From assembly GCA_046482545.1 (NCBI GenBank), contig JAWOEX010000030.1, positions 1-28,363 on the forward strand: a stretch of DNA of 28,363 nt. The letters are read 5' to 3'. The notes under the pieces are model-generated. The model was not told the origin of the DNA. It ran no database searches and saw nothing but the letters and a program-made list of their open reading frames with translations. The translations under genes and the position numbers were made by a program. This document shows positions 1-25,730 of the stretch, piece after piece (positions within the stretch are counted from its first letter, which is position 1; the number at the start of each line of letters is the position of its first letter). The stretch comes from Candidatus Thorarchaeota archaeon (GTDB taxonomy: Archaea > Asgardarchaeota > Thorarchaeia > Thorarchaeales > Thorarchaeaceae).

Positions 1-188
1 CCGGGTCAGGGCAGGAGACAGAAGCCGAGACCGAAGGAGGGACCGTGTCCTGATGATGGCGGTCAAAGCCCGTGCTTGGCCGGGGGTAGCGCTCCGGTAT
101 GGCGGCGACGCTGGGCAAGGAAAGGGTGGAACACAGGAGTTTCCTCAGTTGGGTTCACTCACTCAACTGTAAGAAACATGTTATCCAG
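1..188 (+). ncRNA. Copy 1 (3' part, cut by window start) of the dispersed ~425-nt structured mobile RNA element
   Basis: Aligns by eye with 17018-17198 and ~25410-25600 (CAGGAG..GAAGCC..GACCG..GGAGG..GATGA..AAGGGTGGAACA..CAGTTG..AACTGT..GAAA..GTTA.C.AG). K-turn hairpin at 29-64; 3' hairpin CAGTTGGGT(146-154)/ACTCAACTG(161-169). Confidence 0.8.
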
Positions 189-208
189 AAACAGGAAAAA
201 TACTTTAC

Positions 209-10943: not shown

Positions 10944-11142
10944 TCTCCGTCCACGTCTTATCTTGCTATGACCTGTTCCTTACAGCTAAGTAAACTGCCT
11001 AAAACTTCTGTGTTTCGCCCTTTGCCTGTGAGCGTCGTCGCCCTCAAGATACTTCTCAGATCTTGGGCTTTCAAAGACATAATGATATGGTAAGTTCGAT
11101 AAACTTTTCCTTATTCATTCCAAACTAAATAGGGAGCTACAT

Positions 11143-16248: not shown

Positions 16249-17287
16249 TCATTTCATGGAGGTAATCAAACCTTCAAGTTTTTCTCTATCAAAATTCCGC
16301 TTGAAAAGAGGACGATTGTTCGAGTCATATACTCCAGAAGCCTCTGAAAAGCTCGGTTTTGACGTATCTTGATAAAAGACACCAAGAGCTAATTTGCTCA
16401 TGTTGTTTACCTTCTCCTCTTCAACTTCAAAAAGCGCTGATAGAAAACCAACTGCAACTGTATTGGAGTAAATCTTTGCGCTTACTTCATTGGCGATATC
16501 AGTAAATGGGACCTTGAGAATTCGGTCTGTAGGAATCTCCATATCCGGGGTGATGTTCTCTTCTTCACCAACTACGAGTGTGGACTTGTTGAGTCTATCG
16601 TATCTCTTCAGATGGGGAAGTGCACGCTCATTCAGGGAAAATACAATATCTGATTGCTCCGAATACGAGGAAATGTTTCCCTGTCCTACACGAATCTGGG
16701 TTGAATTCTTTCCACCACGAATCTGTGACATAAATTCTCTTGTGGAATACACGTTGTAACCAGAACGTTTCAAGAATAGGCAAGTGGGCTAGTGCTGTGC
16801 ATGACGCCCACGGCCGAAAGCTGTGAGGAAACCTCTTCCTTCTAAGCAGAAGTCCTCACTCTCCGAACAAGGAACTTCATCAGGTTCCGGAGAGTCCGCA
16901 ACTGTTCACCATGTCCGTAATGGACCTCCTCAGTTACGGCGACAATGCTGAGATGGGTGATCATGACCACGCCGTGGTAAGAACTGTGGAAAACCTCGCT
17001 GTCGCCGGGAGTGATGACCCGGGAACACGACAGGAGGAAGCCAGGACCGCAGGAGGAACCCTGTTCCGATGAACGCGGACAAAACCCCTGCTGACTCAAG
17101 GGCCTACGGGTACCGTGGGGGTGGTAACGCTGGCAGGGGAAGGGTGGAACACAGAAGTTTCATACAGTTGCTAAAACTGTAAGAAATAGGTTATCAAGGC
17201 AGATACGAGAAAATCTTCAACAGTTGCTATTCCTTGACCCTCTGCACCAGATAGAACAATGGAGACTCCCTTCTTCAAATTGACCAC
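16249..17287 (-). pseudogene. 2-oxoacid:acceptor oxidoreductase remnant (korA 5' part fused to a korB-like 3' end), interrupted by the 424-bp element
   Basis: VSIVLSGAEGQGIATVEDFLVSAL (ending at 17195) continues after the insert as KRSGYNVYSTREFMSQIRGGKNSTQIRV. The ORF then ends after ~150 aa of KorA with LGVFYQDTSKPSF..PLFKR, resembling KorB C-termini. Confidence 0.8.
16775..17198 (+). mobile_element. Copy 2 (complete, 424 bp) of the structured RNA-like element, inserted in korA
   Basis: Flanked by TCAAG at 16770-16774 and 17194-17198. Deleting 424 bp gives TCT GCC TTG AAA CGT (S-A-L-K-R) in frame on the minus strand. Homologous to copies 1 and 3; no intact ORF. Confidence 0.88.
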
Positions 17288-17551
17288 GTCTATATGAGCA
17301 ATCCAATTCTCTTTCATGCTCCTAAGACTAGTGAAAACATGAGCTTGCAAATGATACCAACTTGTTGTATGCTCATGGTAGAAAATTACGTGTGTTGCCA
17401 TCTATCTCTAGGCCTGCGTTCCGTCCAATTTCTGAGAATAATAATCTAATCTCTTTAGGTTAGTCTGTCATTGACACCGGCATAGACTTCAAGTATGATT
17501 GTTCTGCTTCACGCACATAGTATACCATCACACAATAATGGGGTCATATGC

Positions 17552-24959: not shown

Positions 24960-25040
24960 AGCCTTAGTTCTCGGTTTCGGATTTGTGAATTGATTCTCCT
25001 GAAAGACAAACGGGATTGTGTAGCAACAGCTCCTCACTAG

Positions 25041-25600
25041 CTCAAGAGTTCGATGAATCTCTCTTTGTGGAGAGTAAGGACTTCTACTTAGAATCACAGG
25101 ACTTCCTCACATCTTTCGGCCGCGTGCTTCGCGCTTCTGTGCTAGCCCAATTGCCTGGTCCTACTGATATCCAGTACGGTTGTCTGTCTACTAAACTCCT
25201 TTTTGGTCACGAAAAGGGCTCGATGAAATCTTACACTCTACTGTGCTGATTTATTTAGGATTCTGTAGGATTTACAAAGATCTTGAGAGTCCGCTGCTGT
25301 TCACCTCGTCTGTAATGGGCCTCCTCAGTGGCGGTGACAATGTTGAGGTGGGTGATCATGACCATGCCGTGGCAAGAACTGTCGAAGACTTCACTGTCAC
25401 CGGAGTAATGTGCCTGAACAACGACAGGAGACAGAAGCCAGGACCGCGGGAGGGACACCGTTCTGATGAACGTGGACAAAGCCCCTGCTAACCCGAGGTC
25501 CTAGAGGTACCGTGGGGGCAGTGACGCTGGCAGCGGAAGGGTGGAACAGAGAAATTTTAGGCAGTTGGGTTCACACAACTGTACGAAACAGGTTAGCAAG
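25041..25600. mobile_element. Copy 3 of the structured element, with its 5' domain inverted
   Basis: 25281-25600 (+) matches 16886-17198. 25048-25156 (-) matches 16778-16885. The inverted block 25048-25280 is bounded by CTCAAGA(25041-47)/TCTTGAG(25281-87). Confidence 0.85.
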
Positions 25601-25730
25601 AGGAGCCTAACGGTTCTACAGCAAGTTGAATCTTGCACAATCCGAAGTGCATGAGGATATTGAAATGCAATGTTTCCCAATGCTTCTTCTCGTTCTTACA
25701 CAAGGAACCGGGTAAGTCAGTGGCGGCATG

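Follow-up and report, generated by a model that had tools for sequence, protein, structure and literature searches.

The window described here, a 28,363-nt stretch of DNA analysed over its whole length (GenBank contig JAWOEX010000030.1, assembly GCA_046482545.1), comes from a Candidatus Thorarchaeota archaeon and represents contig C41 of the source genome (labelled G000; 3.05 Mb, 98.9% complete). Within it, a minus-strand gene encoding a POR/KorA gamma-type domain (PF01558), korA, is split by an insert of 54-57% GC that lies between flanks of ~40-44% GC. The insert is one copy of a repeat family whose longest members carry tnpB together with a gene for a Cas1-like protein (aCas1-TnpB elements), and it is flanked by the two copies of a target-site duplication (TSD). 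The locus was annotated as follows, with window positions given first; positions on other contigs carry the contig label throughout.

16249 to 16769 (-): downstream korA fragment (PF01558, E 6e-19), fused near 16420 to the last ~55 korB codons; domain match and ortholog comparison.
16770 to 16775 (+): left TSD copy, TCAAGA, which is korA sequence; read in the hexamer register that is exact in 17/31 complete family copies.
16776 to 17193 (+): the element proper, 418 bp, most likely an internally deleted, gene-less copy of an aCas1-TnpB transposon; nhmmer, positions 135-559 of a 559-nt model, E 8.8e-135.
16776 to 16785 (+): probable left-end tip, ATAGGCAAGT, identical to the first 10 nt of its nearest complete copies (C24, C16 and C10); the other ~135 bp of the left end, including YTTACA, are absent.
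16786 to 17021 (+): remnant of the 3' coding tail of tnpB (about aa 460-543 of the TnpB P0001) and, at the same time, the 5' part of a predicted structured RNA; alignment to a tnpB-linked copy, 44 consensus pairs, 11 of them compensatory.
17022 to 17193 (+): non-coding 3' part of the RNA and the right end (..GGTTA); family alignment and consensus fold.
17165 to 17179 (+): terminal hairpin CAGTT-GCTAA-AACTG within the right end.
17178 to 17183 (+): right subterminal repeat TGTAAG, followed by 10 nt to the end, the spacing of TGTAAR in 28/31 complete copies.
17194 to 17199 (+): right TSD copy, TCAAGG, whose sixth base is unlike that of the left copy; placed by the right-flank consensus of the family.
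17200 to 17401 (-): N-terminal korA fragment (POR gamma-type domain), upstream of the insertion; joins 16769 in frame once the insert is removed.

A sequence-only reading of this DNA had proposed a clean insertion between TCAAG direct repeats, with restoration of the korA frame upon removal of 424 bp. TCAAG is present on either side of the insert (16770-16774 and 17194-17198) and extends to a hexamer that matches at five of six positions (TCAAGA at 16770-16775 vs TCAAGG at 17194-17199). Removing the 424 bp yielded an open korA N-terminus reading ..ATVEDFLVSALKRSGYNVY.., and the reconstructed frame aligned without gaps to the orthologs L040 and L041 of the same genus (65-70% identity over 167-182 aa), which are intact at the insertion site and colinear through the junction (..VEDFLVSILKRSG..). 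The alignment was likewise gapless to orthologs from two other genera. In the orthologous empty-site DNA the hexamer position occurs once (CGTT-TCAAAA-TAG in the same genus, TTC-TTCAAGA-CCG in another genus), and the hexamer at the korA insert is therefore a true duplication. Frame restoration, gapless ortholog alignment and the single hexamer in ortholog DNA together confirm the empty-site reconstruction, and the insert is a genuine insertion of a mobile element, clean and with ends that can be defined. By chance, five matching nt at fixed junctions are expected about once in 1000, and a random 5' truncation would have the matching hexamer in front of it about equally rarely.

The interrupted gene carries a second lesion, a ~2.3-kb deletion through which korA residue ~188 is now linked to the last part of korB. 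Within the open reading frame (ORF) at 16249-16769, residues 1-121 and 117-174 match two separate genes, of 578 and 314 aa, that are 2.3 kb from each other in genomes G001 and G002, and the same-genus korA ortholog measures 578 aa in two genomes. The korA-korB operon (16249-16773, minus strand, with the deletion junction near 16420) is thus a pseudogene with two lesions.

The unit found in korA gave 81 BLAST matches in the source genome, and an nhmmer profile built from 13 copies gave 103 matches genome-wide, 31 of which are complete at ~559 bp. These counts are lower bounds, because the assembly breaks inside family copies. Right ends and family copies were mapped by nhmmer; a loose regular-expression scan over-called right ends (358 matches) and was dropped. 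A complete copy has a left end of ~135 bp and, behind it, the ~420-bp unit as in korA. Over the 31 complete copies, the hexamer that follows ..GGTTA on the right side reads T (29 copies), C (19) or A (8), any base twice, G (25) and A (30). The hexamers at the two junctions of a copy are identical in 17 of the 31, against 9% for non-self pairings, and most of the non-exact copies have junction hexamers one base apart. Since the seventh junction position is variable, the length of the repeat is 6 bp, with the consensus T-C/A-N-N-G-A and at least 20 different hexamers among the complete copies. The other copies in the window had been said to end like the korA copy, and they do (GGTTA/TCCAGA at 179-189 and GGTTA/GCAAGA at 25591-25601). 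When 5' boundaries were compared across genomic copies, all complete copies shared one 5' end, and heterogeneous 5' boundaries were confined to remnant copies; the condition under which the sequence-only reading would have been refuted on this point thus did not arise.

Both ends of the family also carry a fixed motif. YTTACA was found at nt 11-16 from the left tip in 29/31 complete copies and TGTAAR, ending 10 nt before the right tip, in 28/31; this symmetric subterminal inverted repeat is a plausible place for a two-fold symmetric integrase to bind. The absence of terminal inverted repeats (TIRs) and of a left-end module, as read from the korA insert, is thus correct for that copy and wrong for the family, and the argument that a miniature inverted-repeat transposable element (MITE) of the DDE type would need TIRs, of which there were none, falls with it. 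The korA copy itself departs from the classical TIR-type MITE, in which inverted repeats stand at both ends, by having the right TGTAAG and lacking the left YTTACA, which is absent from its first 60 nt. An earlier emphasis on the resemblance of AAGAATAGG to AAGAAATAGG carries no weight, as the resemblance is specific to this copy and the right end of the family is AAGAAAYRGGTTA. Of the 18 genomes sampled within the same taxonomic family, 12 contain the unit; 12 genomes from further afield gave no match to it, and homologues of TnpB are spread somewhat wider than the unit.

The korA copy is 89% identical to a copy at C24:2694-3119 and 85% identical to a tnpB-linked copy at C28:133388-133818. 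The unit comes directly after tnpB or overlaps it at 5-6 loci, where the tnpB stop lies ~250 nt inside the unit; the corresponding TnpB ORF has 544 aa (NF040570, E 5e-26; PF07282, E 2e-12). Window positions 16749-17021 (+) match residues 453-543 of this protein (P0001; E 7e-14) with one TGA, so that the first ~245 nt of the insert are a decayed TnpB tail (residues ~453-543) and the last ~170 nt are non-coding. That the insert is essentially just the RNA unit was well judged, for besides this unit the 418 bp hold only the 10-nt left tip. The RNAalifold consensus of 32 copies has 89 pairs, 96% of cells are paired, and double-sided changes occur in 20 pairs, 11 of them in the coding overlap, whereas slid-partner controls gave 38-48% paired and 7-14 pairs with double-sided changes. 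Pairs with changes in at least three sequences numbered 15, against at most three in the slid controls. No Rfam family was matched at gathering thresholds over the whole window. From this covariation, the unit appears to be a conserved structured omega-type RNA of ~420 nt that runs from its overlap with the 3' end of tnpB to the right end of the element, a size that we take to be unusually large next to the shorter guide RNAs known for TnpB.

At the 5' end of the korA copy, ATAGGCAAGT is followed by GGGC.., which in complete copies is placed behind a second TAGGCAAGT 135 nt further in. In the C24-type copies nearest to the korA copy, the 9-mer TAGGCAAGT occurs at the tip and again at the start of the unit, in the tnpB tail. 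The tnpB tail reads ACTAGGCAAGT in nearly all family copies; as it has ACTAGG in almost all of them, the A at 16777 favours a retained left tip in the korA copy. No second 418-bp short-form copy was found among ~80 matches in the source genome, nor was one present among 12 informative copies from G001, G002 and G008, in which all copies with upstream sequence have the long left end (a thirteenth copy, cut by a contig end, was set aside).

Long forms of the family were delimited at two places in the source genome. The element on C28 (~133386-141686, ~8.3 kb) is flanked by exact TCAGGA and that on C20 (~228518-236745, ~8.2 kb) by exact TCTGGA, and in both the left end of the mini-copies (model positions 3-83) was located past the 3' end of a very long gene (C28:141604-141684 and C20:236665-236740). 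The order is left end, giant Cas1-like gene on the reverse strand, divergent promoter region, tnpB, RNA and right end. The tnpB-proximal sequence (CTTAATAG.TTTAAATA..) was also considered as the left end and rejected; it belongs to the divergent promoter region, the true left end lying past the Cas1-like gene. A divergent ORF of 1400-2000 aa stands beside tnpB at all four loci examined in the source genome (C28a, C28c, C23 and C20), and head-to-head pairing of this ORF with tnpB was seen in most of 15 loci from relatives among those listed. Paralogs of the giant ORF in the source genome have only 26-32% identity, which makes the Cas1-like/tnpB pair old. Intact TnpB and Cas1-like genes are present at C28 and C20, so that a supply of both proteins in trans to the mini-copies is possible from gene content.

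Two features of individual long elements were recorded. In the C20 element the junction match runs to 10 nt (TCTGGATTGC on both sides), four bases past the hexamer into the left tip. In the C28 element the tnpB/Cas1-like intergenic region measures ~1.3 kb, compared with the usual ~0.25 kb, and holds an extra 224-aa ORF (C28:135866-136540, L088:2967-3641) that has no Pfam match and is possibly a secondary insertion.

The giant ORF was compared with Pfam, NCBIfam and PDB sequences, both as a single sequence and as an 8-sequence profile, with no usable result. The N-terminal 340 aa were modelled from a 13-sequence alignment with a predicted local distance difference test (pLDDT) of 85.7. Foldseek with this model returned weak Cas1 rows (best E 0.048), and an exhaustive aligner was needed for the match: in a VIA-align search of 48,161 chains, ranks 1-12 were all Cas1 or casposase, with Z 13.4-9.4 against 6.2 for the next chain and a root-mean-square deviation (rmsd) of 3.6-4.0 over 151-197 residues. 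Casposase 6opm aligned with Z 11.2 and an rmsd of 3.8 over 189 residues. The motif H205-x6-D212-x2-D215-x2-R218 is invariant in the giant protein and, on sequence, presumably resembles the Cas1 active-site motif. The predicted structure thus gives the N-terminus of the giant ORF the fold of the Cas1 catalytic domain; on the ranges aligned by VIA-align there is no counterpart of the Cas1 N-terminal domain. Since, apart from tnpB, its gene is the only one that all long elements share, we infer that the Cas1-like protein is the transposase. In one giant protein (P0002; G001, L078:218-5353), residues ~400-445, located C-terminal to the Cas1-like domain, contain an invariant ..D415..(M/I)xxE(V/L)K439T.. 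that resembles a PD-(D/E)xK nuclease motif; the other ~1200 residues have no recognisable domain.

With good though not complete confidence, we read the korA insert as a non-autonomous mini-copy of the 8.3-kb Asgard Cas1-like/TnpB transposon that arrived by Cas1-type staggered integration and later lost its left end. The Cas1-like protein would bind the subterminal repeats YTTACA and TGTAAR, 10 nt in from the tips, and would join both 3' ends of the element to the preferred near-palindromic target T-C/A-N-N-G-A with a 6-bp stagger, whereupon gap repair would duplicate the hexamer. The standard ~559-bp mini-copy would have come from a long form in which a deletion brought the ~135-bp left end next to the final ~85 tnpB codons, and one such copy would have entered korA at TCAAGA and split the gene. 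The simplest reading of its present 5' end is a one-off 135-bp deletion between the two TAGGCAAGT 9-mers of left tip and tnpB tail, which would have removed the left inverted repeat, left 418 bp that are nearly the RNA unit alone, and probably followed the insertion. Drift would since have changed one TSD base, produced the 11% divergence from the nearest relative and placed the stop in the tnpB tail. The 6-bp stagger chemistry and the order of the two deletions are what we infer. Of the three mechanisms offered by the sequence-only reading, a larger element whose left part was deleted at microhomology comes closest, with the difference that the microhomology is TAGGCAAGT and not TCAAG, which is the TSD. 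As the left repeat is gone, the korA copy has probably lost its mobility. Both the copy and the gene around it are defunct, and the copy may well be silent, being without the left end and the probable promoter region.

Three further copies lie in the window, in a setting that also includes Ras/Roc/LRR genes, a gene content pointing to an Asgard archaeon of the Thorarchaeia type; all were mapped by nhmmer.

1 to 189 (+): copy A, part of a right end cut by the contig start, ending GGTTA/TCCAGA (179-189); model positions 384-559.
10970 to 11052 (-): copy D, an 83-nt right-end remnant; model positions 476-558, E 1.7e-10.
25040 to 25601 (+): copy C, rearranged, with model positions 245-559 forward at 25277-25595 and then GCAAGA (GGTTA/GCAAGA, 25591-25601).

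The window and contig C40 share the opening 183 nt of the repeat right end and diverge after TCCAGAAA. In copy C, model positions 6-256 are inverted (25274 down to 25040), and both inversion junctions fall at an internal hexamer, TCTTGA/TCAAGA, a pattern suggestive of recombination, or of self-integration, at a TCNNGA site within the element. On other contigs, two 5'-truncated copies, C2:33141-33450 (-) and C28:105449-105764 (+), begin at one identical internal hexamer (model position 249, TCTGGAGAGTCC), and the right junction of the C2 copy is TCTGGA, as though the left duplication and the internal hexamer had recombined.

Several observations weigh against a simple Cas1-type integration followed by a left-end deletion. 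Breakpoints recur at the internal hexamer (model positions 249-254), in copy C, at C2:33450 and at C28:105449, and they could reflect recombinase-like action on the hexamer instead of simple staggered integration. Known Cas1-family integrases make much longer duplications than the 6 bp seen here, namely 14-15 bp in casposons and an entire repeat in CRISPR integration. The Cas1 assignment comes from a predicted fold plus a motif; the Pfam Cas1 model finds nothing in the genome, and a whole-protein profile of the giant ORF finds nothing in PDB sequences. For the korA copy in particular, the TSD is imperfect (5/6), the argument for the left tip consists of one diagnostic base (A not C at 16777) together with the TSD, and a decayed tnpB tail at C28:71841 also reads AATAGG.

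These breakpoints bear on two related proposals. In the first, which we hold to be a minor possibility, the Cas1-like enzyme, alone or with TnpB and the RNA, recognises TCNNGA as a recombination core and could recombine two hexamers. If true, this would explain the internal TCYGGA breakpoints, the near-invariant TC..GA frame and the partial clustering of TCAAGA by lineage, and it would mean a Cas1-family enzyme with a site-specific, recombinase-like outcome, or RNA-assisted choice of target. The second is conservative site-specific recombination at the same core following an IS607-like logic, in which the element leaves as a circle with one hexamer that recombines with an identical target hexamer, the flanking repeat then being a shared core and no repaired stagger; we consider it improbable. 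It would account for hexamers that are identical at both junctions with nearly invariant outer TC..GA, for the internal TCYGGA breakpoint in three copies, and for the inversion between inverted hexamers (copy C) and the deletion between direct hexamers (C2:33450). TCAAGA also clusters on a 32-copy tree (5 changes vs 7.98 +/- 0.91 in shuffles, P = 0.0085). On a 52-copy tree, however, neither the whole hexamer nor the central NN, TCAAGA or TCTGGA clustered significantly (P 0.31-1.0), and inheritance of the hexamer by lineage is unproven. The 20 or more different hexamers in 31 complete copies argue further against a core, as does Cas1-family chemistry, which is transesterification by 3'-OH ends and not conservative recombination. 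Nor was a suitable enzyme seen: the serine recombinase domain PF00239 was not found in the 98.9%-complete genome, in a search whose control matched 12/14 reference genomes (tyrosine recombinases were not searched for), and the long elements hold no ORF of at least 150 aa besides tnpB, the Cas1-like ORF and the 224-aa ORF, the last in C28a only. The IS110 transposase, too, was not found in the genome. The serine, IS110 and Y1 recombinases that the sequence-only reading suggested looking for are thereby not supported, the first two not being found in the genome and a lone Y1 gene being unlinked to any copy.

The 418-bp form might instead have moved as such, either with the tnpB-tail CTAGGCAAGT mimicking the tip ATAGGCAAGT as a pseudo left end or after a deletion that preceded transposition; in both cases the short form would have produced the korA TSD. 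The presence of TAGGCAAGT both at the tip and at the unit start in the C24-type copies closest to korA would allow this, and the order of deletion and insertion is not readable from the sequence alone. The lack of a second such copy, both among the ~80 source-genome matches and among the 12 informative copies of G001, G002 and G008, speaks against it, and so does the loss of the left YTTACA, which stands at a constant distance from the tip in 29/31 complete copies. Mobility of the short form therefore has a poor chance compared with deletion of the left end after insertion.

An IS200/IS605-type palindrome-associated transposable element (PATE), moved in trans as single-stranded DNA by a lone Y1 transposase with TCAAG as left target or target-adjacent motif and the same cleavage site at the right, is very improbable. 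The unit does combine a TnpB-type RNA with a right end that has a subterminal hairpin, and one Y1 transposase gene is present (C24:6134-6874, PF01797, E 3e-27). Against this, the hexamer covaries between the junctions of a copy and differs between copies, unlike a fixed right-end cleavage site; the empty site has one hexamer, so that a true duplication occurred; and the inverted repeats at the ends are symmetric. No Y1 TnpA gene is part of the long elements, and the neighbourhood of the genomic Y1 gene has thiolase genes and no family ends. The earlier statement that the IS200/605 rules do not fit this insert holds on all of these points: the hexamer is duplicated, exists in at least 20 variants and joins symmetric ends of an element without a Y1 gene. 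The lone Y1 (IS200-type) gene (L038:1474-2214 in a second numbering) encodes 246 aa, which is long for the family, stands amid thiolase/ChsH2-like genes and may be domesticated.

RNA-templated (retro) insertion of the RNA unit alone, which the korA copy recalls in being almost only that unit, is effectively refuted: a search of the genome for a reverse transcriptase found none, the copy starts with the left tip of a DNA element whose sisters have the 135-bp left end and whose 8.3-kb forms share the ends, the duplication is constant in length and prefers certain sequences, and there is neither poly-A nor a variable 5' truncation pattern tied to TSDs.

Loci of this kind have been catalogued before. 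Altae-Tran et al. 2023 (PMC10691335), citing Makarova et al. 2020, describe aCas1-associated TnpB loci of Asgard archaea (groups Cas1H-Asgard-1/-2) as 'likely a distinct family of transposons'. Those loci share with the present family a divergent Cas1 homologue and tnpB in Asgard genomes, flanking repeats, the prediction of a transposon, and a GTTCACTCA motif downstream of tnpB that appears here as ..GGGTTCACTCACTC.. in the terminal hairpin of tnpB-linked copies. The text of PMC10691335 on these loci gives no exact ends, 6-bp TCNNGA duplication, symmetric subterminal repeats or gene-less mini-copies, and the family is otherwise known from such computational catalogues. Compared with the loci described there, the korA copy is further decayed, its left end being gone.

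The RNA and TnpB can be read against the same source. A proposed guide is placed by PMC10691335 in an internal hypervariable segment. Here, a comparison by eye of the hexamer with the 4 nt that precede the right-end hairpin, with no formal mutual-information scan, showed no guide-like covariation of the IS608 kind. With a guide located past ..GGTTA, the target specified by the korA copy would be the korA site without the insert. The RNA may at present act in trans as a guide for TnpB. In an alignment of 12 TnpB homologues, the RuvC-II glutamate near P0001 residue 346 is an invariant glycine (..VAIGRLK.IR..), and RuvC-I D243 and RuvC-III D438 (NADRNG) are invariant. A nuclease-dead TnpB was rejected as a conclusion, since PMC10691335 has E-to-G, 'RuvC-II rearranged' TnpB clades that are thought to be active.

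Other mobile elements resemble the family in part. With casposons it shares a Cas1-fold integrase as the sole candidate transposase, inverted repeats at the ends and a TSD. Casposons encode a family B DNA polymerase and lack both TnpB and a guide RNA, whereas here the duplication has 6 bp, a protein of 1400-2000 aa has the Cas1 domain at its very N-terminus, and the cargo is tnpB with a ~420-nt RNA. Like MITEs and PATEs, the mini-copies are short, gene-less and multi-copy and keep both parental ends, and TnpB-family PATEs also retain the guide-RNA region; the parent here is neither DDE nor Y1, and three quarters of the mini-element consist of the RNA unit. IS607-family elements likewise have TnpB and an omega-RNA at the right end and a short identical sequence at both junctions. 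They differ in using a serine recombinase, which was not found in this genome, and in their junctions: IS607 reportedly inserts adjacent to or between GG with a 0-2 bp duplication, and the junction repeat here has 6 bp and varies between copies.

Cas1 is the integrase of CRISPR memory and of casposons, and Cas1-TnpB loci of Asgard archaea have so far been predicted transposons only. A clean insertion in korA, with the empty site verified in sister genomes, is direct evidence that this family has moved, and dozens of sister copies add to it. The ends are now defined for testing, with exact tips, a 6-bp near-palindromic target, candidate binding sites 10 nt in from the tips and a left-end deletion that is expected to be immobile. 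A large RNA overprinted on the end of tnpB is retained even in gene-less copies. The korA case contributes the clean empty-site proof and a natural left-end deletion, and its value lies in what it says of the family and not in the korA copy itself.

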